Assembly (NCBI GenBank): GCA_032718475.1 | Contig: JAUCBJ010004643.1 | Span: forward strand, 1,603-65,602 | Reading direction: 5' to 3' | Origin: Nemertoderma westbladi | Taxonomy: Eukaryota > Animalia > Xenacoelomorpha | Length of the DNA stretch: 64,000 nt | In this document: in pieces, positions 20,401 through 60,557 of the stretch | Position numbering within the stretch: position 1 is the first letter of the stretch | Layout of the letters: every line of letters starts with the position of its first letter | The notes under the pieces: generated by a model | Told to the model about the DNA's origin: nothing | What the model saw: only the letters and a program-made list of their open reading frames with translations | The model's database searches: none | Translations under genes and position numbers: made by a program

Positions 20401-20640
20401 ACATTTCAACAGGTTGGTTCTTCTTTCTTCTCTGTCTTCTGTATCTTGTATTTGGATATTATCCGCATCTTATTTGGTGTCCTCAGCATTTAGACCCCCG
20501 TATTGACTCTCATAGGAGCACTGGTTCTACAACTCTAGATTTGAGACATGGGGGGGGGGGGGGGGGGGGGACTCGACGCAAATCCAAATTGACCCTTTTT
20601 TGGCGACTAATGGTCTCACCCAGTCGGCAGGTCGCTGCCT
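17499..20640 (-). mobile_element. Near full-length, decayed RTE-clade non-LTR retrotransposon (APE endonuclease + RT), several frameshifts
   Basis: APE: IATMNARTL, ICIQEHR, CYSPTN, AGDLNAQIG (19843-20409); QLDYILI and SDHRIV nearby. RT: PLPKKGDL, QNGFRPSRS, FVDFKKAFDSIHR, GVLQGDTLAP (18324-18929); FADD near 18255. C-terminus RRLRFSGHCWR...RGRP. (TAG)n-like 3' tail at ~17500-17520. The 5' boundary is approximate. Confidence 0.95.
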
Positions 20641-28760: not shown

Positions 28761-31700
28761 TAAATAATTAAAACGGATCAGTTTTATTAAGATTAACAGA
28801 AGGACCGATGAGCCATGAAACATCTGAAATGAACTCATTCATTTTATCCATGAACTACAGTACATATTTAACCAAAAATTAACTGAAGGAACTCCGGCAG
28901 AGCGGGCTTTGTGTTGTTATGGCAAACTCCCTAAGATAGCAGGTATTCTAACATTATGAAAATACCACCGATTTCGAATAGTGATAGTCGAATGAACACA
29001 GATTTGGTATAAAAATAAATAAAAATGATAAAACAGAACAGAACAGAACAGAACTTAACAATACTATATTTAAGAATATAACGTGTTTAAATTTTAACAA
29101 AAATAAAATAAAATAAACCACCATTGACAATCTTGACTTTCACAATCTTAACATTCACAATCTTAACATTCACAATAGCAACGTCCCAATATCATTTATT
29201 GCATAAATAGACATAATAGTAAAGAACATCGTAATAGGAACAGTTCCTTTAAAAATAGAAAGATTCACCCAATGAAAGAGGTTTGTTAATATTTTCCCCT
29301 CTACTAAGAATTAAGTAGTACCAATTATTGTACCTTCAAATTGAAAACGTGAACTAAATCCATTGGTTCAGCCCATTGTCACTTTAAAGCAGTTACCATC
29401 AAAAATCGCATAAAGAACTACAGTATATAAGGCTACTGTATTTCTATTAGTAGGCCCTACTACAGTATATAACATATTGCAAACGTTATCGTATAGTTTT
29501 ACTTCAGGCCAAATACGTATATTATCCAGTGTGAAACCTCGGGTAAACCTCTCTGTGTGAAATTGGCTGTAATTCTCAAAACTTCCTATTGCAACACGAA
29601 TAACAAATTTCACCGACCAGTTGAATACCGGTAATAGCTGAGATACTAAGCTTGATAAAATATTAAGACTGACTGACAATATAGATTTGTTGATGGCGAC
29701 GTTCATTACTAAACTGTATGAAGGGTAACTGTGTGTAAACTGTAGAAAACTGTACGTGGTTTGCCCTTCATTACATATCTTAAGAACATGCTAGTACACT
29801 ATTGTAGGCCTATTTATATTTTCTATTGCGCCTCTAAAGATACAGTATCATACGCTTGTCTTCAAATGCCATTGTACAATAATTAATATCGTAAATAAAT
29901 ACTCCAACTGGCACCTTAAACAAATTTTCTCTACGGCAATAATAGAACCTGGCAATAATATGAGCTTACCTGACACACAGCCTTCGAAACGTAATGACTG
30001 CTAAAATATTCACTAAACTAAGAGAACTCTACTGAAATAATACAACGCAAATAATCGAACGCAAATATAAAAAAGAATTACACAAAAAATACGACATATA
30101 AATAAAGTAACTCCCGTGATATTTCCCGACCTCTAACACTATCCCCCAGTCGCTGTTGTGAATAAATACCTCGCGTGTCCAGCCAGACAGAGTAATACAG
30201 TAGGACTTAAACTCTACCGATAACACCACTGACTAGTTTAGTAGTTAGTCAACGCGTTATCCAGAGGTAGGTAATCCGATTCTGGAACGTAAGCGAAAGA
30301 ATGTAGAGCGCACGCGTCGGCCAGGAGTCGAAGTCGGAGAAATATATACATAGTTCCGGTTCCCACGGTTACTGGTGTTGGGTAAGGCAGATGGGGTGGG
30401 GGGGGGGGGGGGGGATTGAGCAAATCCCTCCTCCACGAATAATATCTAGTTTAGTCTAATTAACTATGTTAATTATTAATTAATACAAAAAAGTTAATAG
30501 TAGCAACAGCAGAATTGTAGTTTAATTTTTGGAAGCAATCAGCTGATTTTAGCGTCGACTTTCCCCAGGAGAGGGATAAATTTTGATATTGAAATTTGAA
30601 TTTTGAAATAGCCCCACCCTACCTGGGTCGGAAGGGATAGTTGCAGGGACGGCAGAGTTTGATGTGGGGTTCCACGAGTGGTCAGTTGAGTTGCTCAGTT
30701 ACTGGTAATTATATATTAACATCATGGGACTAGTGCCCTGAACGTCGCGAGTGAGTTTTACTCTTTACACACTGGGTCTCGACTGCCAACCAACCACCCT
30801 GACGTCAGTTACGTAATAGACAAAGCGGCGCGGCTGCAATTCAATAGTTCAAGTAATTAAATATAAACTTCTGTTCGTTTATAGACAGCACATACATTAC
30901 AGTACCCATCGCACACTATATAAAGCAGTTACATTGTCACATCAGTGTACATCAGCGTCTGTAATACGCGACACATAAATAGGCCATACTTGTCCCGAAT
31001 CGAATTCTATACAGTAACGAAACTACAGTACAGTATAATGTACATATAAATTGGTAATGTGCGTTATCGATATGTTTGTGTCAATAAAAAACACAGACAC
31101 AGTGTATGTGTTATATTTCAATTAGCCTGAAAAGTAATGCACAAATACACAGTATATTTTTATTTCACTATTTTCTATAGTACAGTATTAGTGGTTATGC
31201 AGTTATGGTAAATGGCAAATGAAGAGAACAAGCAAAACAACTCAATCGTACATTCTGTACAGTAGAATTCTACATGTATAGTAACGTGCATAATACATAT
31301 TAAAAAGTACAAATTAAATATTTCACAAGTTGCTTTCAAAATTTAAAGTAAATTAAAAGGAATTAATAGTAATCAATTTATTAATTTCAGTAAAATGATA
31401 ATAAAATAATTGAAACACTTATGATTCGTTGATTCGTTATTTTTCTATTTCCTGTAACAGAATAATAATTATTTTTATATAATTAATGTAATGGGTTGCT
31501 AAAAAATTAAATATGGAAATCAAGATTAGGGAAGAAATGGATGGCCACGAATTTATAAAATAAATTCGTGCCAATCCATCAATATTGGTTAGCATTGCGT
31601 GTTATTGTTTAATTAATTGGAATGCGAATGTAATTATATTGCATATAAGTTATATAATATTGAATCATAATTGATATCTATCTCACACAAATATTTAACA

Positions 31701-32023
31701 TGATTACAATCAAATACATCTAGATATGAAATAATAACATTTTGTTATGATTTCACAATTATTGTTTTACTTTTCCATAGTGTAATAATCACTTACTGTT
31801 GTGTCGGGAATGCAGGGGGTGGGGGTATCAGTTCCAGATGTATGAAGGCCAGAGAGACAATACAATAGCCTGGAGGTGGGCGTTGTAGACTAAACTGACC
31901 TACTGTATGTTTACTTAGTAATTATAAATATACTGTACAATATCGTACGTAAAAAAAATACAGAAATACAGTATGTTCCTATTTCGCGGTAATTCTATCC
32001 ACTGTATAAAGAATGAAAATAGA

Positions 32024-33199
32024 CTAGGATGATGCAGAAGTGCCGGTAGTAGTAGCGGATGTGGTACTCGTATTAGTCGAAGTGGTAGTAGAAGTAGTAG
32101 AGGTGGTGGTAGCCGAAGTGGCCGCAGCAATAGCCCGGGCTCTGGCAGTGGCAGAATCTGCCGGGCTCACAATCACGGTTCGTGGTTGGACCGCAATAAC
32201 AGGAGTAAAGGAAGGCGCAGCTGGCAAATACTGCATCGACAAGTTTGTCTGCTGGAGGGCAACGGATGGTGATATAGCAGCTATGTGCATATCGTGCACA
32301 GATAATATAATATCATCTGTGGCAGCTTTGCCACACTTGTACCACCCCGAGATGGTGAAACCCCCCTTGCTCATTGATAGCCGTAGCCATTTTAGTTATG
32401 TTCTCACGCAGGTTATTGCTATCGAACCGTGAGCGGGGCAGTGACAAAGCCTGACTTGACAAAAACAAATTTGTCAAACCCAAGCTCTGCCACAAATCAC
32501 CATTCTCGAATGGTATCAGATGATCGCTGGTTAGAGCAACCACCACAGCAGCCAATGCCCATCCTTCTGTAGACACCTTGTCGATGCAGCAGCACTGCAT
32601 CGTTGCCTTTCTCCTATCACAGAGAAATCCGGAGCAGGTAGGTCCCACTATCTGGGGGATGTCAAACCGCAGTTTCTCCCCCACCAGGCGAAAATCGTGG
32701 TACGCCATTTCTTCCTTGGAGGACATATCTAGAGGCAAAGAGTATAGACACTGACTTTGAACAATAGCAGGAAGTAGTGGGGAATGTGTATTTATAATAG
32801 GATTATCCAAAGAGTGGTGGAGGTAATCTCCTGTAAATATAGGATCACAGATTTGGACCACCCCTCCAAGTTTTACCTCGCGATGGAGAAATAGATTGCG
32901 AGAATGGTTAGAATCGCGGGTAAAGATTGTAAAACATAGGTCTGAGTCTAGATCTCCAAGCACTACCTCCCGGTCAAAGGCTCCCTCTTTCTTGGCCTGC
33001 TTAGGTGGAGCAGACCCACCACCTCCGAACCCTGGCATTCGCCCCACACGTACAGTACGTAGGGGAGGAGGCGTTCTACCCGGGCAATCATAAGAATAAC
33101 TCCCATCAGTACCGTCTGATTAGGAACATACAGTTTCGATTGGTACCCTTGTACCACTTCTTGTATAGAAACCCGACGCCGATTGTTTATTCGATCCAT
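32024..33199 (-). pseudogene. Accessory gene of unknown function (~390 aa, two frameshifts), divergent from the RepHel gene
   Basis: Overlapping ORFs 32963-33205, 32313-33047 and 32024-32374 join into one reading: MDRINNRRRVSI...FDREVVLGDL...CSGFLCDRR..CCC...AINEQGGF/TISGWYKCG...S/T-rich tail. It is a GC-rich island in AT-rich flanks. Confidence 0.7.
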
Positions 33200-36100
33200 C
33201 CTCACTACTGAATGAATTATTTAATCTTTAATTACTGCAGTAATTAATGGTTATATTACATTAATACCAAAATATTTAGTCACTTTAGAAAATAATTAAA
33301 CGCATTAACTGCTTAAGTAATACATCATTTAATATACAGTATCTATCTAATTTAATATTTATTTGAATTATTTGAATGAACTGTTCATACTGTAGTCGTA
33401 AAATTTAATTACCGGTAGCTTACTATTTCTGATTTCAATCTAAAATCCATTACGCTTGTACTTACACTTGTTTATAACCATTCGGTTATTTAAAGAATAA
33501 ATATGAATATTATATGACGGTTGCCGTGGGATATTAAATTGAAACATATTTTCCACTACCGCAACAATAATATGTCAGTGGTATGTGTCACTACCAGCTA
33601 AGCCAAGGTGTACAGTATTGAATAACTAGTTCACTTTGAGATAGGAAAATACCTAACCGGTATTAGAAGACTACTACTCAAATAAATACCGGTAATTCAT
33701 TTTCTGGCTACTGTAGTTTTCATTATTTTCACTAAGAATTAACTTACCTCTAGCCAGTCAGGTATACTAAAGTTTAATTTAGTTCAGAAGCGTTTGCTGT
33801 TTGACTTAACTGGGTGTTTTAATAGGCCTACCCGCGGTATCGGAAACGCTTGACTAAACAGTTATGACTTAAAACTGAAAGTTTTATACCGGTACTAAAC
33901 ATGACTGGTGAATACAGCTATAGCGGTACAAACAGTACAGTTGACTTTTAATACTGAAAGTATTTCTGGCAATCTGGTAGCGCTACTTGAATACCAGTAC
34001 CAGTAACTGATATACTGAAACAGGGGCCTGAACATTGATTAGTGATTACAGTAACATTTGTCAGGCTGTACAAACAGTGGAAATTATAATACTGGAAGTA
34101 TTTATGGTTGGGATACTTAACCTCCATCTTACCAATGTCTGATAGTAGCATAACTGATATAAGTGGACTAACAGATGGTCAGATAGTTGATGACCGGTTC
34201 CTGGTAGGCCTATAGGACCAAGCCGGTGGCATTTACTACCGCAGTACTAAAAGTATTTTAGCCTGCCTGACAGTCTGGCCGTATGATTTTGGTAGCGCTT
34301 ACCGGTAACGGTACCGGTCTGCCGGTGTAGTTGCTGCAATCAGTAGTTACTGTATGTACAGTATCTTTTACTTTGGCGCCCAAAAGGGTTGGATACGTTT
34401 TGTTTCTTAAATTTTAAGTGTTTTTAACCTGAATTATTATTTAAGATAGGCAATTAATGAGTTTCGCTATCGGTAACATCTGTTGTCATTGTTTTACTTA
34501 GTACTACAGTCAGACAGTATCACTTGGCCAATTATACCTGATGACAAGGGTTAACAAACAGACAAATTAATCAAACAAATTGATTGGTCATTGGTAAGAA
34601 GTATAGCGGTCGCGGACGATTTAAACGAATTCAGTATGTCGTAATGTCGATTAGCGTACTACGTCTCATCGCTTACTCTTCGTCTCTCCGCCCATAACGA
34701 TTACAGATACAGAAACAGATGATTATAGAAACAGATGATAGATTATTGTAACAAAGTATAACAAACAGGTTTGTTAATCACGTTTAGTTTGTTATTGTAC
34801 CTTATGCCAACTGGTACTGTCTTTCAACAATATCGTAGGTCTCCCATACAGTATCTTAATAATAATTACACACATGTGGGTGGAATCACATTGAAAAGTT
34901 GTTTTACTAAATATAAACTCATACTAGGCCTATAACTAATACCGAACTCGAACTGTAATTTAGGCCTATGTTGTACTTTATGTAATAAATTACAAAATTT
35001 CAAGGGGTAAAAATATCGTGACAATAAATTATTAGATTTTATTAATTGATGTACGCAGTTCGCTATGATAAATGCTTGCGATACAGATAACATTAACCTG
35101 CATATTCGATGGTATAATACTGTATAAGCCTATGTATTATACTGTAGGTCGACATTTATTTCGTCACTTTCCATTTATTCTGTATACTGTATAAGTACTG
35201 TATTGTGCAATATTTTCCTTTCAGCCTTAATAATCACACAGTGTTTATAAGGAGGTTGGACCTAACGTTGAACCTAACAAGGAGGTTGAACCTAACCTAA
35301 AGATTCTTCGGATGATTCTTCAACGAAATAAAAGTTTACCACCAACGTTGTGTAAATGGCCTGCTGATTTATTCTGCATAATAAGCTGATACCGTTAGTA
35401 CAGTCTGACAGTAGTATATAAATAAATTATTATAACACGTAATATTATTATAGTTATCATCAACGCATAACAAACATTAGGTCTACCGGTAATTATCTTA
35501 TCAATTAAAACTCAGTATCTATTAGCGACGGGAACAACATTTTCGCTGCGAATTACGTCGACTCAATTAGACGGAAATCAATTTATTTGAATACGCCAAT
35601 AATAAATTACAGTACGTACCGTAGGCCTACCTACTGTACCGGTAAAATTACTTTCATTATACAGTTGGTATATACTGCCTTTTAATCCTTAACTAGTTAA
35701 TCTAATTAACCTTTTACTGTTCCACCATCGTTTAATCGTTTACATTAATTTTATTTACTTTTCAGATATATTCATATTTCCACGACGAACCTGTTATACA
35801 GTAAGTCTGTTAAAGATAAAGTTTAAATTCTGCTTGGATCCAGTTAAGTCTGCTGTGGGACAAGCGTGGAACTTTACTGAATATATCGAATATTCAACTG
35901 AATATAAATAAGTATACGAATTATTTAACTAAATATTGGAAATGTTTGTTTATTGTTAATGTTTATATGTTTATGTTTATTGTTACTGTTTAAAAGTTTG
36001 AATGTTTATGTTTATTGTTACTGTTTAAATGTTTATTTGTAAATGTAAATGTTTGTTTGTACTGTAGGATATTTACTTGGATCAATTGGGTTAATTTAGC

Positions 36101-36223
36101 CTTATTTGTTGTTAATTGCAATATAAAACATATATGTGTAGGCGTACTGTAAGTCTAATATTACATTAAACTATTAAATCTGAGTATCTGTGGTGAAGGG
36201 TCTAAATCCTTTCTAAAATCAAA

Positions 36224-39200
36224 ATGCCTTTCGTGTCCAAAAAACGTAAGCGACATATAAACAAATGTTCCAAATGCCAATGCATTATATCGAACGAACG
36301 GTCGGGTTTATCCGAAGTTTGCGACCGCTGTGAATTGTCTGCTGTTGGTACGTCATCCATCAACAGTGAGATTCCTCTATCAAACGCCAACGATCCCCAA
36401 ATTATCACTAGTAGCCAGATAGTACCACCTGAGGTACAGGTCATGTTACCAACAGACACTAACTCTGGTGAAAACGTAAGTACTAACCAGATTGAAACAC
36501 ACGACTCATATTGTAACTTGTACAATAATGGATTCGAGTCGGAATCCAGTTTAGAATACCCCGACAGTGACGAGGAGGAATCCATCCTCATGTCGTCCCA
36601 AAATGAGTCTCACACTTCAAGAACCCGTGTTAACCGACAAAGGTGCCAGGTATGCCGTCGAATTTGTAGAACAAATAGCTTATATTGCAATGCTCATCAA
36701 ATGAGTTGGAGTAGACGCAACCCTGAAAGTAATACCAGTCGTAGTGCAGCGTCAGCTAACATAGAAAGCAGTGATAGTGACGTGAGTGGAATAGAAAAAT
36801 CATCAGCTGGTGATTCATCGTCATCATTTGATTTATCAGATGATGATGATATTGACGACTTTGCGTCGGATGGAGAGGTAATTCCAGGTGAATCACAATT
36901 ATCCAACCAGCCTCTAGAAAGGCGTAAATATTGTATAATATGTAACAATACACTCGTTTCACATAATTCTATGTATTGCACGTCACATAGAGCCATCCAA
37001 ACAGTGCGCTCTATAACCACATTGAACACAAATGAGTCAGATATTGCGATGGTACAGCAACCATTAACATACAGCACAGAAATTTTAATGTGCCAGAATT
37101 GTTTTCGTTGGGCTCTACCTTCCAATGATATAGACCTCGGGTATATACTCAGAAGTTCCGTGGCATTTACTAAACATTTCCGCCATATTCATAAACATTC
37201 TGCGGACGCATATACAATATTATGTACATTATGCGCTGTATATTTGACCACAAAATATAATAAATCCTCCGCCCGCCAATGGCAGTTCATGTGGCCCTCT
37301 GTTCTCTGGCACCTCCTTTCCGTTAAAGGTATTGTTGATGATTTTCATCCGTGGAAATTCATCACAACATCCTTGCGGGAATCGTGGTTGCCTTCAGTGT
37401 CCCAAATGCACCACACATTAGTTGATGTCACCATAGAAACGCCGCCACCATATTTCAGAGATATTACCACTGATATCTCGGTGTTTCTAGATGACATCAA
37501 ATCGATGAAACTCGTGAGACTCATAGCCGCACTTAATCGACACCCAAGTTGTTCGGTTAGATGTGTTTATGGTTGTCACGAGTTTCTAGAATACTCCAAA
37601 CCAATATCATTGGCGGCGATATTAAATGAAGTCGTCCCCGACTTCACTGTGTACTGCTCTAAACATCTGAAATATATGCGTCCTGATTGGATGGAGACAG
37701 TAAGTTTCCTCGAAATTTTCCAAGTTGCGCCGTCAGTTACGATATCCAACGAAGAGGGATTGTGTATCCGTGTGTGTAAACTACATAAGGGTGGCAATAC
37801 CCTTCGCTACGTACACGTCCCACCAAACCCTGTTGTAGGGAGTTTCCCCTGCACAATTCCCGACCGCCTTGGCTCTGCAGTCTTTGTTCCGAGAACATTT
37901 CGGACAGCCAAAGCCGGATACGCTTCCCACACCTACCAGATGTGGGAGGAACAGGGAGCGTATTCCGGTATGACCAGCTTCACTCTCTCGACTGATCGAC
38001 GTTTTGATGTCACAGACGAGAGAGTGGGGCAGTTAGAATCATTATTGCTCCAAACTCGCCCAGATTGTCTGGCCCTACTTTACAATCTTGTAAATAACGG
38101 TCAGTTGTCTGAGCAGACAATGGAGCAATTTATTAATGTTCTTAAACCTTTGGATTTACAGGGACTGTTCTCCGCCCTATCCAAAGGTACTGCAGTACCT
38201 CTATCAAGTGCTTTAGCACTACGGGACCAGTTAGGGACTGTGACTGTTCCTAATCTGGAACATATTCAGGAAAATGATCCGGAACATATTGGATCACTTC
38301 CTGATGATCAGATTGACCAGGTTTTAGAGCAAGTTTCTCTGGGGAACGTAGTTTGCGACCGCGTTCAGTCACCAGTTTTGTTGGCTGACCAGGGTGATGC
38401 CGTTGTTGAACCACTTAACAACCATCCAAATATACCCGAACCTGTAATAGGTACTGTAGTTGGAAATCCGGTACAGTTCAACTCGTCCCAAATGAGATTG
38501 TGGCCGAAAATTATCCCAAACGTACAAAATTGCGACGGCTACGGCGCTATGCCCTTAGTACCTATCATAAAAGATACTAGCAACTTGGTACTGTATCTTT
38601 GTTCTTCCATTTCACTTAACGTGGATGCAGTGTGGAAGTCATTACAACTTTCAGTCAATGACGGAAACTTCAAATGGTGTGGCTATCTGCTACGCTATTT
38701 GTCTAAGTATATTACACCCTTCACTGCGTCAAAAAATAGTAATAGAAATATACCATTCATTAAACGACCAACTGATTTACAAATTAATGAAGTTTTACGT
38801 AACATCCCATCAACAGCAGCGCCAGTGCAGCAGCAAGTTGCTACTATCTTCTCCAACTTGAACAAAATAGAAAATATTCGGATTGAACATAGATCCATTA
38901 TTTCTAATGAAAATGTGTCTGAATTTGTTCAGAATCTCCCACCATCTTCAGAAGTGAATGTCGTATTTATATCGACAGTAGAAAGGCCATCACCGGCCTT
39001 TTCCACTCCATTTGTCCCGGCAAAAATTATTTCCGTAAACAATATCAATACCTGGCAATTGCGTTTTCTTGCCACTTCGTTCTCCACTGCCGCCATTATA
39101 TACCAGTCATATCCTTTCGGGGTTAATGGCTGGTATATAGAGTCTAACAAGACTCCAACAAAGTCGCCAGTGCTGCCGACTGACATACTGCGGAAATGGT

Positions 39201-40100
39201 CTCTCGCAGTCTATACAACTATATATACTGTAGACGGCTCCCTTTTGAGGGACCAAACCTTACAATCAATGGGTGGCCAATCTAAAGTCAAATGTGCCAC
39301 ACACCAGCTTCCCTTTATTAGGGAACTGCGCAATAATATATTCAAATGTGGAGAAACATTAGAAAATGGGTCGAGGTGCAAAAGGGTGGCTGCTTGGAGG
39401 TGTCCAGCATTTACTGCGCAACCCTGCAAGCAATGCCCAGCTGCACTTTGCAGGAAGCACTGGCAGTCATGTTCTTCAAATCGGGGTAGTTTCATTGTTC
39501 CTCCACCGGAAGATGAGGCCATCCTGACTGTAGAGCATGATGAGCCATTTAGTGACGATGACGTCATTGATGACGTATATTGTGACGTGGCCCCGGAAGT
39601 AGAGGTCATCTCTCAAGAACCTCTAGATTACACAGACGATCTAGATTTTGCAATGAACGCCGGTGTATTTTCTGATGACACTGGCCATGACCCGGCAGGT
39701 GCTGTTCCTCAGACTGACAGTGGTCTGTCGAGCCTTTCTTTTAATGTTGAAAGAAAGATGGTCCCTGGACATGTTATTCTTAACCACGGGATGGGACTCT
39801 TACAACGAAGGGGACATGTGGTAGACACGCCAGCATCGTTTAAGAGATGGCTGGAAAATCTCGTAGCCACTACACCAACAAAGTCCGTATCATTAATGTA
39901 CCCCGAGTCAATTCTTTTCCCTTCCATTTTTTGGCAATTAATGGAGGATGGTTCAATTCCGGGTGCCATACCTCATCCCCTTTGGGGAAATTCCAGCGCC
40001 CGGAAAATGTTGGGTTTTGAAACTCTTAGTAAACAATTGCAAGTGCGGGTTTTAAACCAAGACCTTTTAACCTCCACCGACCCTACTGCTGATAAACTGC
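36224..40100 (+). CDS. N-terminal part of the Helitron-like RepHel polyprotein: several Cys/His clusters, acidic linkers, pre-Rep region
   Basis: 1343-aa ORF with CQVC..YCNAH, CIIC..YCTSH, CQNC..CTLC and CATH..C..C..CKQC..C..H clusters. The YPESILFPSIFW motif lies shortly before a frameshift at ~40100 into the Rep frame. Confidence 0.8.
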
Positions 40101-41170
40101 TACTTGCAGTTTATTTTCGATGCTTTATTAAATATTTTATTAAGAAATACGGACACCAGATTTGTTTCCAACCGTGGTTGGGAAGACATACTAAATTTTG
40201 CTGGAACCCTGCCAAAAGGAAATCAGACAGGGTTATTAAACCTGGATGTTACTGACAGTAACACCCGGGTCATTGAATTGGCTAGTTGCCTAGCCGAGAG
40301 GGGTGAGCCTACATATTTTTATACTCACTCCTTCTCCATGGACAGCCACTACGGTGTGAAGCCTATATTTCACCAGGTAGAATGTATTGTCGAGAAACAC
40401 CGCCAACAATACATCTTAGATAACGGACTTCCCTGTGTTGGGGAAACTTACACTTGTAAGATGGCAGAATCGATCCGCCAGTCAGCCATGATCCAGCTCC
40501 TCCGGTCCGTCCAAAGAGCTGGATCTTATCATATGAATTACATTAGATTTTCAGCTGAGCAGCCTCTTGGTGAGGTTGACGATATGTGGTACACCTGGGA
40601 GTTCCAGGACACCAAAGGGAATGTACCACATATACATTCTCTAATCATAGTAAAGAATGCCGACAAAGAGTCTGATGAGGTATTTCTCCGCATCAGAGCC
40701 TCCGAACAGACATTCTTTACTAAGGATGAGATTGAGGAGTTCCTTGCTGAGGGTCTCATTCGAGACAGAGACCACCTGGATGAGATTTACCGCAATCTGG
40801 TACGTCTCATCCACGATTGTGAGAAATCGGGGTTTACCTGCCATAAGAAGGTAGACTCTTCTGGACAGCGTATTTGCCGCAAACACGTGAACCCGCCATC
40901 GCATGGACATTATTATGAAGAGTTACCAAACAATCATTCCAAGGAAGCGTTACAGGTCTACCAACGACGGTATGGCCACAATCAATGAATACGGCACCTT
41001 CCAATTGCATGCCCCAATCCGTGCTGGGAAACATTTCTACGCCTCAGAGTATACCTATCCAATATTCTCGCCCTGTAACAACAGATTATTTGCGGCCACA
41101 CAGTGCAACGACAACCTATTGGTGTGCGATGGTTGCACCAGTTCACGTTATTGCGTCAAATACGCTGCCG
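40100..41170 (+). CDS. HUH Y2 Rep (replication initiator/transposase) domain, with a frameshift at ~40965
   Basis: Motif 1 PTYFYTHS (~40307), motif 2 WEFQDTKGNVPHIHSLI (~40596-40646), motif 3 YCVKY (~41149-41163, in the next frame). Confidence 0.9.
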
Positions 41171-44100
41171 GTGCTGAGGAGAAACGGGACGTACGATTTA
41201 CCGCAGGCCAAGCATCGGCCAATGTAGTTCACGCACAGGAGGATGAGCTGAAGAACATTAAAATTTCAGGTCCCGCCATTCTGCGCAAGGAGGAATTGGA
41301 GAAACAAGCTAGTAAACAAAAGACCGTGTTTGCTCGGCTTGTTGGTGCTCCTGAGTTGGGGTGGCACATTTTGCACCTCCCCGTGACTGTCCCGTCGTCA
41401 GAATTTATCCATATTCCAACCACCTCCATAGAAAATAGGGCTGGGGTTGTTATGCCTTGGAAGAACCAAAATCCAAAGCATCCAGCCCATACAGAATGCG
41501 AACGTGTTCGCTCACAACTGCTGTATCTACCATCCCATCGTCATTTCACATCAAACCAAACTATGACGATGGTAGATCAACAGGATTCCATCATATCAGT
41601 TGATCTAATGACGGTGTTTTGTCTGCGGCCACCAGAACTCTTGTTTGTTTTACGACCAAAGTTATATTTAACTTGGTTTGCCCAAATTAAATTGCCATCC
41701 AAAAAATCTGAAATTAAATCTATACACGAAAGGAAATTAAGAACAAATATACGGGAGTCAATGTGGGTAGATGGTACCAACCATATAGTACAACTACGAC
41801 CATCTGCGGTAAATGAATTAAAATCATATTGTACAAATTATAATTGTAAACATGCCAACGATTCAGAACGCGTTACTGATAATATGCTCTCCATAATACA
41901 TCTAATAGAATTAAACGACAAGCAGGTTACTAATAATTACATATACCAAAATTGTATATTCAAAGACAAAATTCCAATTGCTTGCGACCGAACCATCACA
42001 CCAATGAACCCTGTTAAATTCTTAGTCCACTTATTGTTGAGTATGGGGGAGTTCATAACTGAAATAGACCTGTTCCTCGTTCCAACAATGAGGGACTCGT
42101 TTATTAGAGCGGGACTTTTACCCGCTGCTGGTCCTTACACGCAGGAGAATGTAGACCAAATCCTCACCAAATACCAGTGGGAGCAACTGCGACACGTTCC
42201 AGGTGGGGTGAGAATGTCCGATAAGTATAATATTGTGGCAGCGGATCATGTGCTGCAAAACCTCATACTCAACAATGAGGTGACTACTTATGACACACCT
42301 ACTGTACTCCTAAGTACACTGCAAGAGGAAAATACCATAAAAATTGCAGGAATGCTGCATGATCTCAAACTGGCCACAATAAGAGCATTAAAGTTCGACG
42401 TAGCCATCGTCAACATGCCGTCATTAGATGAACTGATGGCGGCCACTTTAGAACGGCCTCTTCCATGGAAACCCCAATTGGGAATGGCCCCCGGACAATC
42501 CCAGGAATCCATGGAGGAACAGAAATATGCCATAGAGTGCATAACTCGGGCAGTTGATAGACTTCTTTCGGGGCACCACAGTTATTCAAAATTCCCCGTG
42601 ATCCTTGGACCACCAGGCACTGGGAAAACTTTAGTGATGTGCTATGGTGCGGTTTATGCCATCGCAGGTGGCGCTAATATTATATTCACATCATTGGCCG
42701 CCGAGCGAGCAGTTAAATTTGGTGGAATACACATCCATCAATTACTGCCAATTCCTGTGATTGACCACGAGGGTGGCATCACTAATGTTACAGTTAACTC
42801 GGAACAAACGGTACGAAAATTACATAACCACAAGGAGAAGTTGGCCTATCTGCGAAATTTACATGTACTTTTCGTAGAAGAAATAGGTACAGTGAGCGCG
42901 GAGATGTTCGCTGTACTGGATCAGGTTCTCCGCCATGTTCGTGAGAATGACTCTCCATTGGGCGGTGTACTAATGATTGCCACTGGCGATACAAAACAGC
43001 TGCCCCCAGTAAAAGGTCATCCAATATGGGTGTCAACCCATATGTTTACTACCTTCAACATCATTTTATTGAACCATTTTGTCCGTTCCGCCCTTGACCC
43101 CGACCTTATTCGGGTGAACACACTTATCAGGAAATTGCACCTTTCCGAGGATGAGATTATAGAGTACACCTCTATTCTCTCTAGGAAGTGCAATTTCGTA
43201 CGAACTTGGGACGCGGTTGACTCCTCTACCTTGAGGGTTTTTGGTAAGCGAAAGGCCGAACGGCAGAGCGTTAAACATATGTTGCATGTCGTTGGAAGCA
43301 GTGGAAAGGAGTGCATGGCAGTCACTGCAGAAGATGAAGAGTCAGTAACTGGTCAATCTGCATGGAAGTCTGCTTCAGCTGCTACAAGGCTGCTACAGGT
43401 CCTCAATAATCGAACCGATGAGCAAGTACTTACACTATTCTGTGGTGCTGTCATGCGGGTCACACGAAATGACCTCTCCCGGAAAGGCTGCTTCCAAGGC
43501 CAACTATGTGTAGTAACCTCTCTGCCTACTCAACCACTCGGGCCATTTAAAGTAATGGTGGCTCCACCCGGTCAAAGGACGGTTCCAGACGACCTAGAAG
43601 GTAGTGGTTGGAAGGAATATACAATACGTAAATTCCAGTCATTGTCTTATTCCGTAGGTCGTGGAATTAGTGGCCGTCGAACACAATACCCGTTGCGACA
43701 TTTTATAGCGGCCACTATCCATCGTATCTTAGTAGATACAATATTAAAATTAGCCACCGCTATTAGTGAGGTTGAGAGCGAGTACCACCTCTGGCTCCGC
43801 TCTCAATTAATCGTCTTGATTAGTAGACTAGAACTTCTAATTAACCTGACCTTCGTAGGAAACAAGGACGACATTCTCCTTGCTACATCTACTTTACTAC
43901 GTCAGGTAAGTCAGTACGACGTGTACATTGAACATGTGTTGTCTGTTGTGGCAACCAATGCACAACGACTACCTTCCGACCTCTACCCCGTAGTCGACAT
44001 GAGTCTCCACCCCTTCCGGCCAGGTAATGTGACCCTCCCACAAACAACTTCCGGTTACGTATATTGCCTGATCTCTAGACCCTGTCCCAACGTCACTTAT

Positions 44101-44463
44101 ATAGGGGAGTCACAGAGTCTGGTATCTGCCCTAAAGAACCACAACCAAGGGGGTACATTTGGCACTAGTGATGATTTTACATCCAACATTTCACTAAGAC
44201 CATGGGCAGTGCTCGCCTTCTTCACTGGGTTCGACTATCAACTTGGAACCAGTTACCAACGGCAACAGGTCATAGCTGGTTGGAAACTTCGGATAAACGA
44301 GCTGTACGATTGGACCAATGCTCCCCCAAAGGAAGTATTGGTCGCAGCTCACGACACGTTGCAAATCCACAAACCCTTCCATCCAGACTTAAATCTCGTA
44401 GTTTGTGGAAGCCTTAAGGATCCTCCTGATTTTTTAAAGAGACCTACCGATAAACAAAACTAA
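40903..44463 (+). CDS. PIF1-family SF1B helicase with C-terminal GIY-YIG endonuclease-like domain (C-terminal part of RepHel)
   Basis: Walker A GPPGTGKT (42607), GGIHIHQLL, LFVEEIG, LGGVLMIATGDTKQLPPV, QYPL..AATIH. C-terminus GYVYCLIS..TYIGESQ..HNQG..RPWAVLAFFTGF. Confidence 0.9.
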   Translation: MDIIMKSYQTIIPRKRYRSTNDGMATINEYGTFQLHAPIRAGKHFYASEYTYPIFSPCNNRLFAATQCNDNLLVCDGCTSSRYCVKYAAGAEEKRDVRFTAGQASANVVHAQEDELKNIKISGPAILRKEELEKQASKQKTVFARLVGAPELGWHILHLPVTVPSSEFIHIPTTSIENRAGVVMPWKNQNPKHPAHTECERVRSQLLYLPSHRHFTSNQTMTMVDQQDSIISVDLMTVFCLRPPELLFVLRPKLYLTWFAQIKLPSKKSEIKSIHERKLRTNIRESMWVDGTNHIVQLRPSAVNELKSYCTNYNCKHANDSERVTDNMLSIIHLIELNDKQVTNNYIYQNCIFKDKIPIACDRTITPMNPVKFLVHLLLSMGEFITEIDLFLVPTMRDSFIRAGLLPAAGPYTQENVDQILTKYQWEQLRHVPGGVRMSDKYNIVAADHVLQNLILNNEVTTYDTPTVLLSTLQEENTIKIAGMLHDLKLATIRALKFDVAIVNMPSLDELMAATLERPLPWKPQLGMAPGQSQESMEEQKYAIECITRAVDRLLSGHHSYSKFPVILGPPGTGKTLVMCYGAVYAIAGGANIIFTSLAAERAVKFGGIHIHQLLPIPVIDHEGGITNVTVNSEQTVRKLHNHKEKLAYLRNLHVLFVEEIGTVSAEMFAVLDQVLRHVRENDSPLGGVLMIATGDTKQLPPVKGHPIWVSTHMFTTFNIILLNHFVRSALDPDLIRVNTLIRKLHLSEDEIIEYTSILSRKCNFVRTWDAVDSSTLRVFGKRKAERQSVKHMLHVVGSSGKECMAVTAEDEESVTGQSAWKSASAATRLLQVLNNRTDEQVLTLFCGAVMRVTRNDLSRKGCFQGQLCVVTSLPTQPLGPFKVMVAPPGQRTVPDDLEGSGWKEYTIRKFQSLSYSVGRGISGRRTQYPLRHFIAATIHRILVDTILKLATAISEVESEYHLWLRSQLIVLISRLELLINLTFVGNKDDILLATSTLLRQVSQYDVYIEHVLSVVATNAQRLPSDLYPVVDMSLHPFRPGNVTLPQTTSGYVYCLISRPCPNVTYIGESQSLVSALKNHNQGGTFGTSDDFTSNISLRPWAVLAFFTGFDYQLGTSYQRQQVIAGWKLRINELYDWTNAPPKEVLVAAHDTLQIHKPFHPDLNLVVCGSLKDPPDFLKRPTDKQN

Positions 44464-47400
44464 TACCCTTTTAATTAAATTATAATATTATACTATTTTT
44501 GAACTAGGCCTACTTCACGGCTATTATAACTTTTAAAAATTTTCAATTTATATTTCAATATTCAATATTATATTCAATATTTATAATATTATTTACAACA
44601 AAATTACGCATTGGGCGCATCACGACAGATACTCAGAGTATATTTCAATATATACTCAATATATATTGATATATAAATCAATTTCAATATTAATCATACT
44701 GTAGGTATGATAGTACTTATATGTGTACGTACAGTGTGTATGTATTTTTGTAAATATATGTACTATCATTTTTTGTATTTTTCGTAAGCATCGCATTATA
44801 GTATAGTGTCCTATACTTTTAATGTAAGAGCGCATAAACAACCTCAAATGGTTATAAACAAATACAGTAAACAATACTGCGGGGGATGTATATAGTAAAT
44901 ATATACTACTTAAAGAATTTGGTGTTTGTATTACTGTACATTTGTACATTAATTTATTGGATATGTTTTATTATATATTTTACATTGTACTGTACTGTTC
45001 GATCATTAATGAGCCACGCAATATCGAACATAATTTTTTCGAGTTATTTAATCTATTATAGCCAAGACTTGCTATATTATTATAATGATATGATTATACT
45101 GTAGCATACTGTATAATGCCGAACAATACTGTACGGAGCTTATACAAAAAGCTACTGTACGGTTGTACTGTACTGTATAATATTTTCAAATAAAAACAAA
45201 CTCGTTGAATTCGTAAGAAATTATTTTAGGCCCTATATTTTTCCTTCTTACAACTACTTACTGTACTGCATTATTAGAGGATTCTTCTTTAGAATATTAA
45301 AAAAGCTCCATATTTTGAGAAATTATTAACATTTGGGGTAACCAACACAAAAATATGATCTTTTGGGATTCAACTTTTGGGATCTCTGCCAATTTATAAA
45401 TATAGATTTTATATAAATATATTAATTCAATGTGGTATGTTTCTGCAGTAAATAATATAATATAATAATATAAAACAATGGTATTCGAGCATAAATCAAA
45501 CCCAATTGATCCACCACTTACTGTAAAATTAATTATTATATGTTATGATATTTAGTAGGTATATTTTATGATTATCAATAATAAAGCGATAACATTTCCA
45601 ACCTTATATTTTAATATATTATTTACAAAACTACCCTCCCCGGCACTCTCCCGAAATAAATAAATCCTCCTCAGAGTCAGTTTATCCAGGTGGCGGGTCT
45701 CTTACATCCTGGAAGCGACGGTATAAGAACAATAGAATGAAATTGAAATAAACAAGCAGTGTGATATGTGTGATATCGGTGGGTTCGGTTCCATTTGAAT
45801 GAATCCATTCCTTTATTTTGCCTCATAATTAAAATCAGACAAGGTATGAATTTCTACAGTATCATACAGGGGGGGGGGGGGGGGGGGGGGGGAATAAAAT
45901 CAATACTGCACAACGATGTTCCGAAAGATTTATTAACATACTGTAAATCATCAACATGGTAACAAACAACGAATGTACGTACAGTATATATATGATGTTT
46001 CTTTACATTACAGTAATAATAATATGTACTTTAGGATAATACAGCGGCACTATTATTGTTATAAAATCGTGTGCAAAAGGGGAATTGATTTTGCGAACGG
46101 GAATTACGGAATTTGATCACACCCGTCTTCAGTGTAAAATATATGTATCAGTATATAATTGCAATGACGTGTGCGACGCGAAAGACTAGAATAAATAAGA
46201 GGCAGATTTCTGAATGTTATCTAATAACAATTAATATTTGTGTTATCGTTACTAATGTAATAATCATTAATACGTATTTGTCATTCTATAAAGTGGGTGC
46301 GATATACAAAATACGTGATTAATCTACTGCAAAAAAATATTTCTACTGTAAAAAATAAAACTGCAACCTATTCTATTGTGTTTAGTTTATTGTTTTGGTT
46401 AAAATAACGTGCCGCTTCTTCGCGCTTTTAGACCTTAAACAGTTTAACCTGTTAATTTACGTGTCTCATGCTGTCTGACTGCCCGCACAAAATATGACCA
46501 CAGCAGAAGCCAGTCTAGCGCGGCGTATGACCCACCGTGTGTGGGAGACTGAATTCTATGGCCAGAGAGAGGGGTAGGCTACTTTGTATTATTCGACTGA
46601 TCTCTATAATCTCCAAAAACTATGTTTATTTTCAGGGAAATACCAGCAGTTCCTCTAGATACTGCGCTTTAAATACTGCACAGAGTTATGACTTATACTA
46701 ATTACAATGGATGGTCATGAGACTGCACAGTGTTTACATCCTTTAGGAATGTGTAATTATTCTCTCACACTCACGTCACTAACAATAGTACTGAAATGCG
46801 CTATTTTGCCGACTGTCACCAATTTTACTCACATAAAAGGAGAAATTTAGCTCACGTACGTTGTGGGCTATGAAACAGCATGAACTCATGCAAACCACTG
46901 TAATTAGAGCCAAGCAATTTTTACTAGTGTTCCCCTCTGCTTACCTCAATAATCAAGAAAACTAAGAGAGTTATCGGTTATTCATAGTATTCTCCAAATA
47001 TAAGCATCGATTAAATTAGTTACAAACCAAAATATATAATAACAGCATAAACAGTATAAATTATGCCATGCCGGTGGTACACAGTACAGCAATAGTGAAG
47101 TACAAGAGAGTACAAGAGATAATATACTGTGTTTTATAACACTCTGTTTATAACAGTCTGGCCACGGATGGTCTCGGGCAAGTTTAGAATATCAGAATTA
47201 ATGATTTTGTCATATTACCGTATACATATGTAAACAAAGAATTCGCAAAGTGAAAATCGCGCTGATTGGCTGAAATATAACATAGGCTCTACGCATAAAG
47301 AAACAGCTGGCTAATTTCATCATGGTAGCTCTGTACTAAAACAGAGGCTAGAGGACATAAGCTAATACTTTGAAATAATGCTGGCCTTTTTGGAGTAGTT

Positions 47401-47558
47401 CGCAAATTGCACCAAAACAACAAATTTTTGCCGCAAAAGCTTTAACACCGCTCCCAGAAAATGGGACTCAAGTCTATAATATATATATAGAGTCACAGTT
47501 TCTAATAAATTTACTACTCGAAACAATCAATCCTTTTTTCTAGAACAAGTTACTTTTT

Positions 47559-49639
47559 CTAGTTTTTTAAACTTTTGTATAGTCTTTTTCTCCACAGCAT
47601 GAGCCACTTTACTAGGAGGGCTGTAGGGCAGTAGGAGGGCAATACAATTGTATCAGAAGGGTTTGGGTTGTGGTCGGTGTATCCGCCGGTCGAGGTACCC
47701 GGTTGATCAATATCCATAGGAGGTCCACTTCTCTCCTGTGGTGGAATTGCGATATCGACATATTTATCGGAGGACCCAAGGGATCGAGGGTGCATAACCT
47801 TTAAGGCCCGTCTCAGGACAGCAGCTTGTACTGGTCCTGCTTTAGTCATTTGTGCGACTGCCATGGGTGGACCGTGAGTAGTGAGGAATTTTCGGGGTTT
47901 AACAGTTCTTTCTAATTCCCATTCCCTCTCCTTGTACTCATAAGGACATCTGTGGAATTTTTGCAATTCAGGGTGCTCATTTATAAATGTCTCACCATAT
48001 TCAAGGTCTCGGTTAAAAAACCGATCAAGTTAGAAGAATCAAGATTATTTGGATTAATATTTCTCAAATATTTTCTGACATATTTGGTGGAAATACACTC
48101 ACCAACGCGTTTTATTAATTCGTAGTTGGGAACACGAGTTTTCTGTTCGACTTGGGGAAAGAGATAGGGGTGAAATGCATACACTCCTTCATAAGCTAGT
48201 CCTGGATAATATCAATGGCGCAACTCACAGTGAAGATCTGCGGTAGCTTCCCAAGCTCGTATGTATCGAAGTACAATCTACTCGTCTATGCTTTCGATGT
48301 CTTGGCTAAAAGGGCAATCCCAACTAGTGTGTCCTTTTAGTTGGCAGTAATGACACTGTGTCATAAACTGGGGGCAGACAGCGAAGATATGCTTATTATT
48401 AACGCGACAATAAGCACAATAAATCTCCAAGGACAGTTCTCTTACAGCTTGTACCTGCTGAGGTAATTTACGTTTGTCTAAAACATCGTCAGTTTCCTTT
48501 CTGATCTTTTGACGGATCGCTTCAAGTGCATTCCGTACTACACTTTCTTCCACTTCAGTAACAAATTGGATTGGTGCCAAACCAGACCGATTATACAGGT
48601 TGAATGGGGTAAGCATATGTCCTCGTCCCAATCCGGCTGGCTATATAGGGCGAATATCCAAAGAACCAACATCTGAGACACCACCGATTAGTTGTTCTGG
48701 TAAAACCAGATCTTTGAACAAAGAATATAACTCAGGAGGGTCAGTTATACTTTTAGGAGCGAGAGTTTGTGGTCGCACCGAGGGGTGAGGGGGTCTGATG
48801 GAGTATTCTGGAACTCTGATCATAGGTTTACTCAAGGATCATTTGAGTTGAGCGATCATGGATTGCACGTCGAACAGATGTCGCTCAAAACTCCCGTAAG
48901 TATAGCGCGTGAAACTATGTTTAGTGCAATGTCTCCGCGGATGCTTATAGTGTTCCATTTTTTGATTGGGCATTTGTCACAATAATACCAAAGACGCACA
49001 TCTTGTAGGTGAAATGCTGGCAACCTTTCTCCCATTTTGCAGTATTCTTCCATCTGTTCAAAGCTGTCCAGTACAGCAGGTAGCGGTCGATTCGCTATAA
49101 GGTACATCATAGTAAATTATAATCATTTAAGTTCGAACATAGGGCATACCTTGAGGATATTGAGTTTCCAAGTTCTGTTGACTAGCAATATTGGGATAAG
49201 TTTCTCGCAGGAACTCCAAATATTCATAAAAGTTCTTGCATTTGTCGGGCTCTTCCACATCTTCTCTTTCGAGACGATTTCTAATAGAGGTTTCATGTTC
49301 GATCTACAGCTTGTCATTCCGACTCCATTGTGCATGAAATTTGAATAGAATCATCTCCGTTTCTGTATCCAAATCATCAGTATCATGTAAATCGATAGGA
49401 TGACCAGTAGTTAGGAAATCCATATACGTATCATTTTGATGCGTATAGCGCGAGGTGAATTTTCTATAATCGAATTCGGGCTTAAGCTGTTCCTCTGTCA
49501 TCGGTGGTTTGATGTAACATCCATCATCGGCTGTTATAGGTTGACTAGTGTCACCACTCAACAAACTATCGGGAAGCGCTTGTAGAGGTTGCATATATTT
49601 ATCCTTAATACTAAGGTCTTCCTCTATCAATTCAGTCAT
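47559..49639 (-). pseudogene. Fragmented Cys-rich / Zn-knuckle ORF of unknown function, downstream of the BEL/Pao pol and on the same strand
   Basis: Seven consecutive - strand ORF fragments tile the interval. They include CAYCRVNNKHIFAVC and CHYCQLKGHTSWDC (CX2CX4HX4C), plus CDKC/CSTC pairs. Confidence 0.6.
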
Positions 49640-51199
49640 AATATGTGTGGGAGTTTATCGATAATAATACAGGCTAGCGAGCGTCGCTGCCTATATCAGG
49701 CTTCCAACTGGCTCCCGGACAGCCTGAGATCCTCAGCGCTGATGTACTGTCGTCACTGTGCCTCTTGCCAATGTAGTAGCTATACAACGTCAACAATAAC
49801 CAGTGCGAGTCACTCCACTGTCCCTCCCAAGGGCTCCAAGATACCAGAGAGAGATAATTATCGCAGGTAAGGGATGACTTTCTCAATTGCGGCTCGCTAC
49901 TGTAAACACACTTTAGTAGTAACATTCACCTATAAATACCCAAATTCGACTTTCATGCCACAATTCGCACAATTTGGGGCCATTTGTCCATTAGTCAAAT
50001 GCCTTCCAGAATGTCACATTGTTGTTGTGTATCCTTAGATACTATACACTATGCATTCTATTCAATGAGGCAAGCTTTCTATTGTTCTCTGACCCTATTT
50101 AATTCTAGCGTTGTTGTTGCTAAGGTGACATTATGCAAGGCTAGCAGTAGAGATTAGGGTATTTCTCATGCACCCAGATTTGGGATGCTATTTAATAGCG
50201 ACTCTAGGGTTATTATTATTCCCTTTATATGTGATGTTTATGAATTTTGTCGGCTATTTAAATGCACACTAGGGGATTCTCTCACACTTGTTGCAATAAG
50301 GTGAATCTCCGCTCCCGTGATCTATTAATTGACTAATTTTGGGGAACATTTTAATAATTGTCTTAAATTGACAATTTTATTTAATTCATGAGAGGATATG
50401 AATTTAATTTATTCCCGTGAATTTTATTATTTTAAATTAGGATGGGCACCGATTTATTCCAGAACATGTCTGGGGACATTAACCATTGATTCTATAAATT
50501 TTGTCTTTTAAGTATATCAGTGGGTGCAATGATATATTAATAGACTAGAATTTCAGATAGTCAAAGGGTTTAACAGATTTGCTTAAGCAGATTTACTGTT
50601 AAATTGACATCTTCTACTATACGTATTACTTTAGGACTACGGTATGAGAGCAATATTGCAATAAGCAATGTCAGTGAGAAGAGGCAAGTCATTTCCAAGG
50701 TCTACCCAGAGCTTGGTTTAGCCGAGACACGAGGATCTGAACTTTGCATTCCTAATATACTCTACTTTTACCAATAATACCTAAAGTACAGTAGAACCAA
50801 GGTAGATTGTACTTTAATAAGTAATTCATCTTACTGTATTCACGTATTTATAATAATATACAGACAGTAAGGAAGGGAGAAAAAATGAAATTATTTCCTA
50901 TCGTTAACTAAAATATGTGTATTGTAACACTAATTAATATAAACTACGTAAGGCATTGCACTCATTTACTGAATAAATTATAGAATTATTCTACTAAATA
51001 AAATTAAATAAAATGATTATATTAATATAAAATTACATAGTAAGGCGTACATAAATATAAAAATAAAGACAAATAAAATAATTTAAAGGTTGTCACAAAC
51101 CCACTCCCATAAATAATGAATTATTTAGTACATAGATGTTTATTGGATCTGGGAGGTAGTCGTCGGTAGAGTGTCTTGTTTACCGTAGTTCCTGGATAA

Positions 51200-59392: not shown

Positions 59393-60557
59393 CCTAAGAG
59401 AAGCATAATAAAAACTATTAATTCAAAGTGAATCATTTATACAAATGAATAAAGATTAAAAAATCCTTATAGCAGTAGAAGTTCAACTGCTGCTCTAATA
59501 ATCGATTCCAATGTATTCTACAGTATGTGACATACAAATCCAGACCAGCCCATTCAACACCTACTGTAGGTCTACCCTGCCTTTGACTTATTACCTACGC
59601 ATGTATGTAATTGAAAGAAAAGCAACGTATTTTCATAAAATATTTAGACATTTTATGTTCAAAGACACATCCATGGTGGATGTTCTAGGACAGTGTGTTT
59701 ATACCCGCTGTCATATCGTCAGTCAGCATCGTAATTCGTTGATTTTCTGGTATTTAGGCTTACTGGTACTATCAGTCATTAGACATACCACTTCTCGATA
59801 GAGGCGGCACGGTAGGCCTACTAACTGGAAGCCAAGGTGGGATCATCTACCCAGTACCGGTACTATATGGTATAATGTACGGCGAGCAATGGGGTACCTA
59901 CTAAAATATAAAACGACCTGAAACGATCTGAAACGACCTGAAACGACCCGGAAGGACCTGAAACGGGCTGAAACGTCCACGAAACGACCGGAAACGACCA
60001 CAAAAACGACCTAAGAAACCTGAAACGACGATCACAAAAACTGCCTAGAATGTGCTAAACCATGGTAAACTTAGTTCACGACCATGAAATGACCTGAAAC
60101 GAGCTCAAACGAACACAAAAATGGCCTACACTGTGCTAAACCATGGTAAGCTTAGATTACAACCTGAAACGACCATGCAACGTCCTGAAACGAGCACCAA
60201 AAACGACCCAGCAGGTAGTTTTCAGGTAACGTCCCGGCAGGTGATATGCTTTAGTATACCAGTCGCTCTATTGTATTGAGTATGTTGTTAGCGTATCCAA
60301 TTCGCTGCACTTCCCAGCGGAAAGTGGGGAGAGTGGCTTTTTACCAATTATGGTTGATTAGGTGACATTACCAATATAATGTCACCTAACAATTGGCACC
60401 TAGCAATATATAGTGCGAGCCACAGGGAGAGATGCCAGCACACAGCTCATCTCAGGGTAGAAGCTAGCATAGGAACAGGGGATAGATCGACCAATGGTGG
60501 GACAGCATGTGTCCAATTACAGCGCGTCCACTGGTTGGCCACACCTAGGTAATTAAT

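Follow-up and report, generated by a model that had tools for sequence, protein, structure and literature searches.

A 64,000-nucleotide stretch of the Nemertoderma westbladi genome (assembly GCA_032718475.1, contig JAUCBJ010004643.1, positions 1,603 to 65,602 of the forward strand; hereafter the window, to which all coordinates refer) probably holds a decayed chromosomal copy of a two-gene rolling-circle (peel-and-paste) DNA transposon, belonging to an old lineage that likely stands apart from both Helitron groups, HLE1 and HLE2. One gene encodes a very large RepHel transposase, in which an HUH-Y2 Rep and a Pif1 helicase are followed by an SLX1-like GIY-YIG nuclease domain; the other, divergently transcribed, encodes a partner protein with predicted RPA-like folds. 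The observations concern the architecture of the transposase and its conservation, the range of the family, the partner gene, the repeated loss of nuclease residues and the presence of the element in multiple copies.

Architecture and conservation of the transposase

The transposase gene (36224..44463, + strand; ~2,745 codons) is spread over three overlapping + strand frames at 36206-40255 (1349 aa), 40071-40988 (305 aa) and 40891-44463 (1190 aa), which a first-pass annotation, made from the letters alone, had joined by two frameshifts into a single intronless protein of ~2,750 aa. This proposal was borne out by tblastn of 29 intact relatives of 2090-2891 aa against the window, in which all (29/29) switch frame at ~40085-40101 and ~40967-40981, and the repaired, intronless read-through comes to 2,745 aa. 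These long relatives of the first search are 26-34% identical to the window (E<=4e-89) and collinear with it throughout; as they align in order and change frame at both breaks (40085..40101 and 40967..40981, +), the three frames are one gene broken twice. At the second break there is a length difference in two contigs from sequencing run X2, which keep the frame, while the first break was not seen among the 12 of 158 insertion and deletion rows listed for the sequencing runs.

The proposed domain order, from a Cys/His-rich N-terminus through an HUH-Y2 Rep and PIF1 helicase to GIY-YIG, was likewise confirmed, with every motif originally quoted being present. The Pfam scan recommended for the window had a mixed outcome: PIF1 passes its cut-off (E 2e-10, 40.9 bits), whereas Helitron_like_N (E 0.0044, 17.7 bits) and GIY-YIG (E 0.027, 15.2 bits) both fall below theirs. 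As these scores are weak, the case for the architecture rests on the family. When the third frame was used for an exhaustive search, clustered at 50% identity and with the best 150 examined, 342 clusters reached E<=1e-30 and 949 reached E<=1e-10; 98 relatives of at least 1800 aa were aligned with the window (99 rows). Members have been traced to the alveolate Perkinsus chesapeaki and the tunicate Styela clava (30 clusters looked up), and clusters contain several full-length members, located on different long contigs, which speaks for mobility; multi-copy clusters include P0030 (6 members) and P0009 (28 member sequences).

In this alignment, an N-terminal region with conserved Cys/His residues (37091..38203, +) is specific to the family, having no match in Pfam or to the sampled HLE1 and HLE2 proteins. 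It is followed by a Cys/His cluster (39293..39460, +), likely zinc-binding, with seven cysteines conserved at 96-100% and two histidines. The catalytic core of the Helitron-type Rep (40308..41163, +) comprises motif 1 (40308), the HUH histidines (40629 and 40635; 100% conserved) and two tyrosines (41149 and 41161; 97-98%). Profile-profile comparison (hhalign) aligns the family Rep with HLE Reps at 99.2% probability over 288 columns, including motifs beyond HUH and Y2, and on this sequence comparison it is homologous to them, a Helitron-type HUH-Y2 Rep. Walker A (Lys at 42625) and the remaining motifs of the Pif1-family, superfamily 1B helicase (42508..43875, +) are conserved at 94-100%; in the window copy the motif V Gly is replaced by Val (43732). 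An AlphaFold model of the third frame (1,190 aa; mean pLDDT, the per-residue confidence score, 84; pTM, the overall score, 0.77) superposes on Pif1 (Z 31, root-mean-square deviation (rmsd) 2.9, 401 residues) and on the HLE1 transposase Helraiser (PDB 7lcc; Z 24.9, rmsd 10.2, 555 residues), the latter being the only one of the matches listed whose range reaches far ahead of the helicase.

The C-terminal domain (44047..44460, +) is SLX1-like, from the family profile and alignment, and lacks a RING domain. A family profile built without the window matches the window domain at E 1e-24, and in the PDB only Slx1 (E 0.13) matches the domain at E 10 or better. Five Slx1 entries match the profile itself, at E 2e-9 to 4e-7, and two bacterial UPF0213 proteins do so more weakly (best E 3e-4); the Pfam GIY-YIG cut-off is passed by 29 of the 37 family members scanned, and the C-terminal GIY-YIG match that had been anticipated is thereby established at the level of the family. 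In the AlphaFold model the domain is predicted as strand-strand-helix-strand-helix, with 10-residue block means of 68-94; GIY-YIG entries are absent from the fold-search lists of the 1,190-aa model, which were filled by helicase matches, and this is no evidence against the fold. The similarity to SLX1 extends across the catalytic domain, including the HN-G...T...RPW stretch and the positions of Tyr, Arg and Glu, whereas fusion to a transposase, the missing RING and the inactivation described below set the family domain apart. In the alignment, Arg36 and Glu79 of Slx1 are the counterparts of its conserved Arg and Glu; according to PMC4407285, Arg36 is an active-site residue and the E79Q substitution abolishes cleavage of branched DNA.

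The GIY-YIG region is present in 90 of the 98 long relatives, and 71 of these 90 domains keep all four of Tyr, Gly, Arg and Glu at a core identity of about 30-35%. In the window copy, Arg is replaced by Ala (44128) and Glu by Ile (44272). Because a contig from run X3 over 43903-44788 differs from the window by only four letters, this loss is probably common to the main copies in this organism, judged from sequence. Counting 71 live and 19 dead nucleases including the window, with nine rows not counted, the distribution requires eight changes on the family tree (FastTree). The second nuclease put forward by the first-pass annotation holds as a family domain, and is predicted to be inactive in the copy in which it was noticed. 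Where the nuclease is dead, the motifs of Rep and helicase are largely kept, as is most of the GIY-YIG domain, which raises a possible, if somewhat doubtful, alternative, namely that the domain serves chiefly to bind branched DNA or to brace the helicase, with cutting being incidental or serving a step outside insertion, such as the resolution of circle concatemers. About eight separate catalytic losses in a domain that stays near full length (mean 135 vs 147 aa), in which one Ser, Asn and Pro remain at 95-100%, would suit such a role, as would the largely intact Rep and helicase motifs in those branches; retention of the four residues in most domains over very deep divergence argues instead for selection for catalysis in the majority of branches.

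Position relative to the known Helitron groups

Reference Reps were gathered by scanning an HUH pattern over GTDB contigs, giving many small prokaryotic Reps and several RepHel proteins. The latter, probably eukaryotic contaminants, were sorted by Pfam into Helentron/HLE2-like (DUF6570, some with an apurinic/apyrimidinic endonuclease, APE) and HLE1-like proteins, and a search using them returned 858 matches, of which the best 120 are all HLE2-like and contain no GIY-YIG. Near-complete eukaryote-type Helitron and Helentron transposases, likely contamination, occur in GTDB bacterial assemblies at L060, L067, L071, L075, L088, L102, L105, L129, L131 and other loci; of these, L129 has a UCH domain and falls beside HLE1.

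A Rep tree of 77 rows was built from 30 of the 99 family rows, 26 HLE2 rows (20 representatives of the 120, plus six loci), eight HLE1 rows, L129 and 12 prokaryotic Reps, with L072 dropped for ambiguous letters. Family, HLE1 and HLE2 form three clades, with values of 100, 96 and 95 in the Shimodaira-Hasegawa-like approximate likelihood-ratio test (SH-aLRT) and a family stem of 1.5. The same three groups appear in a helicase tree of 32 rows, where the family sits on a branch with SH-aLRT 100 and a stem of 2.5, and in both trees HLE2 forms one clade without the family (support 95-98). Nesting of the family within the sampled HLE2 is rejected by the approximately unbiased (AU) test (p=0.024, 39 rows), and its helicase is 19% identical to either group, compared with 25% between HLE1 plus L129 and HLE2. 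DUF6570, present in the sampled HLE2, was found in none of 37 members at E<=0.01 and not in the window; no APE (Exo_endo_phos) was found in the window or the 37 members scanned, and four conserved regions of the family lack any HLE match.

In these sequence comparisons the family forms a clade on a long stem, outside both sampled groups, HLE1 and HLE2, and is therefore not a Helentron with its APE swapped out. A distinct clade consistently carrying GIY-YIG, which the first-pass annotation had named as its own test, was recovered with SH-aLRT 100 in both trees and the domain in 90 of 98 members; of its description of GIY-YIG in place of the usual APE, the presence of one and absence of the other stand, while the implied domain swap in a Helentron does not. 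Resemblance to HLE2 and Helentrons nevertheless goes beyond the Rep-Pif1 fusion, and includes an additional C-terminal nuclease, occasional OTU domains, a nearby RPA-like gene and the family's best profile scores among the sampled groups. Besides the type of nuclease, the missing DUF6570, the family's own N-terminal regions and its separate clade, several details differ: from E to the last H of the HUH motif there are 13 or more residues in the family, mostly with GN before the histidines, vs 11 in HLE2; motif V mostly has Met or Ile in place of the HLE2 Gln, just 8 of 99 rows having Gln ahead of the Gly in that motif; and the median distance from HUH to Walker A is 702 aa vs 558 aa. Helraiser, representing HLE1, has the same Rep-linker-helicase layout by modelled structure, but no second nuclease, and by sequence only two of its stretches match the family, the best being the helicase at E 2e-19, weaker than bacterial Pif1. 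HLE1 elements are marked by a 5' TC, a 3' hairpin plus CTRR and an AT target; no TC...CTRR ends or AT site were established for the window element, whose right end was not found.

Several points weigh against a separate position. In the unconstrained 39-row tree the family falls outside HLE1 plus HLE2 with a support of only 78, leaving the order of the clades open, and all trees were quick ones with long stems and no bootstrap. HLE1 sampling is thin, at eight Rep rows and a single helicase row plus the unplaced L129, and HLE2 rows are mostly animal Helentron-like elements, with several HLE2 subgroups outside the sampling. The family profile also scores higher with HLE2 than with HLE1.

These points bear on the view that the family is a fast-evolving HLE2 subgroup, with a moss element, HelenSM92, as a published member, which we consider unlikely. 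HelenSM92 (Sphagnum; Li et al. 2024) is presented in the HELIANO report (PMC11417382) as an HLE2 family of 16-18.6 kb with a captured GIY-YIG, a single capture in one family, with short inverted repeats and TT sites; copies are listed on CM038908.1, CM038912.1, CM038916.1 and CM038922.1. It is the only GIY-YIG-carrying Helitron found in the literature, as far as the accessible texts go, and, by its description, resembles the present family as a RepHel element of similar size with GIY-YIG. HELIANO, as described there, labels matches by the better of its HLE1 and HLE2 profiles; with HLE2 profiles built here, 13 of 99 family rows give matches at E<=1e-5 for the Rep as well as the helicase, and HLE1 Rep profiles find 0 of 99, so that some members would be labelled HLE2 and HelenSM92 may itself belong to this family. 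The rejected nesting, the lower helicase identity, the missing DUF6570 and APE, the lack of GIY-YIG among the best 120 of 858 HLE2 matches and the four unmatched regions all speak against an HLE2 subgroup, and none of the family's motif strings occurs in the text of the HELIANO supplement, although such sequences may simply not be included there.

A third Helitron clade, inserting in telomeric repeats, was recently described in Paramecium (Arnaiz et al. 2026; PMC13085455). According to that paper, its open reading frames (ORFs) are very long (3052-3592 aa) and it lies outside HLE1 and HLE2, features shared with the family here, yet identity of the two is very improbable. In all four elements read by eye (Hel01, 09, 15 and 16) the canonical HxxQG of motif V is kept and the ORF stops ~70-90 codons past motif VI, with no room for GIY-YIG, against Gln in 8 of 99 family rows and a median of 194 residues after motif VI; 'GIY' has 0 occurrences in the main text. 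From these sequence features, the Paramecium clade appears distinct.

The preferred reading remains a rolling-circle lineage likely separate from both known Helitron groups, old and apparently undescribed; no description was found in a literature search whose scope lay outside Repbase, Dfam and most subscription journals.

The partner gene, the element and its surroundings

Divergent from the transposase lies the partner gene (32027..33119, - strand; start uncertain), whose frame at 32316-33119 (-) continues at its end in the next frame, 32027-32395. As all three sequencing runs covering the site lack one letter at 32361, this is one gene, broken once. The window frame has one database relative, P0215, and more relatives were found in marine metagenome loci around family members. 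The partner is present in 20 of 41 family loci, and, where 2 kb or more follow the nuclease, in 18 of 21 (14 of 17 once near-identical loci are merged), in four arrangements that place it downstream in either direction, or upstream; it thus travels with the family. Two OB folds and a four-Cys cluster are predicted, the four cysteines being invariant among partner proteins. A model of the relative at L039 (pTM 0.72) matches RPA, CST and telomere-end proteins, with RPA and CST as the top Foldseek rows (best E 9e-4) and a best structural match of Z 7.4 (rmsd 3.0, 102 residues), and for P0215 the Atlas features indicate POT1, MEIOB and CTC1 (0.92-0.93; POT1 0.93). Together these suggest an RPA/CST/POT1-like OB-fold protein, likely binding single-stranded DNA (ssDNA), an assignment made at the level of fold, with no family nameable. 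It resembles RPA70, CST and POT1 in its predicted tandem OB folds and four-Cys cluster, but structural identity is 7-15%, and there is no Pfam match and no PDB sequence match for its profile. RPA-like genes are known Helitron cargo.

Other additions are more sporadic. OTU protease domains occur at either end of six of the 37 members scanned (P0001, P0012, P0031, P0038, P0057 and P0078), and a Ulp1 protease domain follows the nuclease in P0053. In one sub-clade the transposase is directly preceded, on its upstream side, by a pair of additional frames of up to 1,465 aa and ~290 aa (L005 204-5543, L007 1-2286, L024 41-4075); they are related to each other, with no Pfam match in those scanned. SET-domain frames lie downstream of the transposases at L015 (1354-2109) and L017 (9648-10529), and a SET domain is also found in proto-Helentron.

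An HUH protein, helicase and ssDNA-binding protein also form a replicon kit, and many relatives occupy 9-20 kb contigs with little else, which could suggest a virus or plasmid-like replicon integrated by accident. Such an origin is hardly credible: members sit on contigs of up to 1.5 Mb (5 kb to 1.4 Mb among the clusters looked up), plasmids and phages give only short helicase matches, and no capsid family was found among 24 neighbouring ORFs scanned with Pfam. Pattern scans, which are insensitive, found no relative in IMG/VR viral contigs or GTDB genomes; an HLE1 motif pattern gave 0 matches in viral contigs, and a looser one gave 10 small phage-type Reps. A truncated family copy adjoins eukaryotic host genes in L004.

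The coordinates first assigned, 36224..44463, are accurate for the transposase gene, but the element is larger and has a second gene. Read depth, a diverged copy and an internally deleted copy define a minimal extent of at least 14 kb (30520..44860, +), whose right end was not found. Depth over 31360-42159 is about 1.1 to 4.5x that of the left flank (three runs, two samples, one microsatellite bin excluded; covering 29200-45380 only), a ratio that is not a copy number, and begins to rise near 30560-30800, where the diverged copy departs from the window. Further copies in runs from the same organism include contigs ~88% identical to the window and a copy with a 1,273-base internal deletion. The approximate left limit of the multi-copy region (30519..30591) overlaps a partial copy of a short dispersed repeat containing a weak hairpin, so that the high depth and the loose ends seen at 30552-30588 are not enough on their own to place an end; this interval may be the element end or a target site. 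The repeat has three partial copies, 84-86% identical (1189-1300, 30519-30591 (+) and 46344-46400 (-)), with more seen at loose ends in the runs, and could be either a target of the present element or itself a non-autonomous rolling-circle element.

Three candidate boundary signals were set aside. A candidate terminal inverted repeat pairing ~30470-30530 with ~46344-46400, of interest because short terminal inverted repeats and a TT target mark HLE2, scored no better than shuffles (37/300), both sides being partial copies of the dispersed repeat; a likeness seen by eye between 30000-30420 and 45550-45900 was reached by chance in 36 of 200 shuffles; and low depth over 44860-45380 in runs X1 and X3 was disregarded as a possible filter effect. 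Rfam gave no match in 28000-48000.

Elsewhere, the window holds a satellite at 1442-17498 (69 bp unit, ~236 copies, 92% matches), which yields long repetitive - strand frames whose Pfam matches are artefacts. At 57866-59422 (-) an intronless frame of 518 aa codes for a 4-aminobutyrate aminotransferase of mitochondrial type, which matches mammalian structures at E 1e-169; positions 1-717 hold a partial copy with 71% identity, and the frame is possibly a retrocopy. A fold-back element lies at 26838-28012, its inverted arms of ~510 bases being 93-95% complementary and 156 bases apart. Remnants of long interspersed nuclear elements (AP endonuclease, reverse transcriptase), and a decayed element resembling a long terminal repeat retrotransposon with an aspartyl-protease-like frame, occur at 18324-20469 (-), 60549-62456 (+) and 47559-56421 (-). 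By its content of aminotransferase gene, these LINE remnants and the satellite, the window is eukaryotic and most likely animal DNA.

Proposed mechanism and significance

How intact members move, including every catalytic step and both accessory roles, is inferred here largely by analogy with Helraiser, which according to PMC5876387 moves one strand via a circle and makes no target duplication. The HUH-Y2 Rep would nick one strand at the left end and hold it through a tyrosine, the Pif1 helicase would peel that strand off, and its ends would be joined into a circle, from which one strand would be pasted into a new site. The partner protein would likely coat and protect the long (at least 14 kb) displaced single strand, as RPA does. 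Helitron Rep has been proposed to nick the target, leaving a heteroduplex (PMC8788227). Since its closest solved relatives are structure-selective, the SLX1-like domain would likely nick branched DNA rather than a sequence, and chances are about even that it opens or trims the target junction, be this a fork, a flap or a post-insertion loop, with host synthesis then fixing the insert. Such nicking would be helpful and not essential, as Rep and helicase remain intact in about eight branches whose nuclease is dead.

A number of findings count against this picture of a two-gene element with a working second nuclease. The window copy is decayed, being broken three times counting the partner gene, and its own nuclease is predicted from sequence to be inactive; at least one key nuclease residue is missing in 19 of 90 relatives (one sequence cut short). 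Eight of the 98 long relatives lack the GIY-YIG region, and although most look truncated, P0049 ends just after the helicase and its cluster has three members of matching length, at 2225-2227 aa. Loci with the partner all come from one sub-clade plus the window, and the partner profile was built from the same loci; the modelled fold scores of the partner (Foldseek E 9e-4; Z 7.4) are modest. No terminal signature, target dinucleotide or empty site was found in the window or the runs, and no end-to-end joint indicating a circle was seen among the 15 of 20 joints listed, from contigs only.

On balance, though by no means firmly, we favour the view that the family is a further major eukaryotic rolling-circle lineage, at least as old as the split between HLE1 and HLE2 and present in animals, alveolates and marine plankton, whose ancestral kit joined Rep, Pif1 and an SLX1-type junction nuclease in one chain, together with an RPA-like protein of its own, and most of which would escape current Helitron profiles. 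Such a lineage would add a branch to the Helitron tree, with a bearing on the origin of Helitrons, and as HLE2-type profiles catch 13 of 99 rows here, many genomes are likely under-annotated for this class of repeat. It also addresses the question of how Helitrons open and repair their target site. We know of no test of the role of the Helentron AP endonuclease. A separate lineage with a different, structure-selective nuclease at the same place, whose activity has been lost about eight times, offers natural live/dead pairs, and these could show whether the second nuclease drives target capture or junction resolution.

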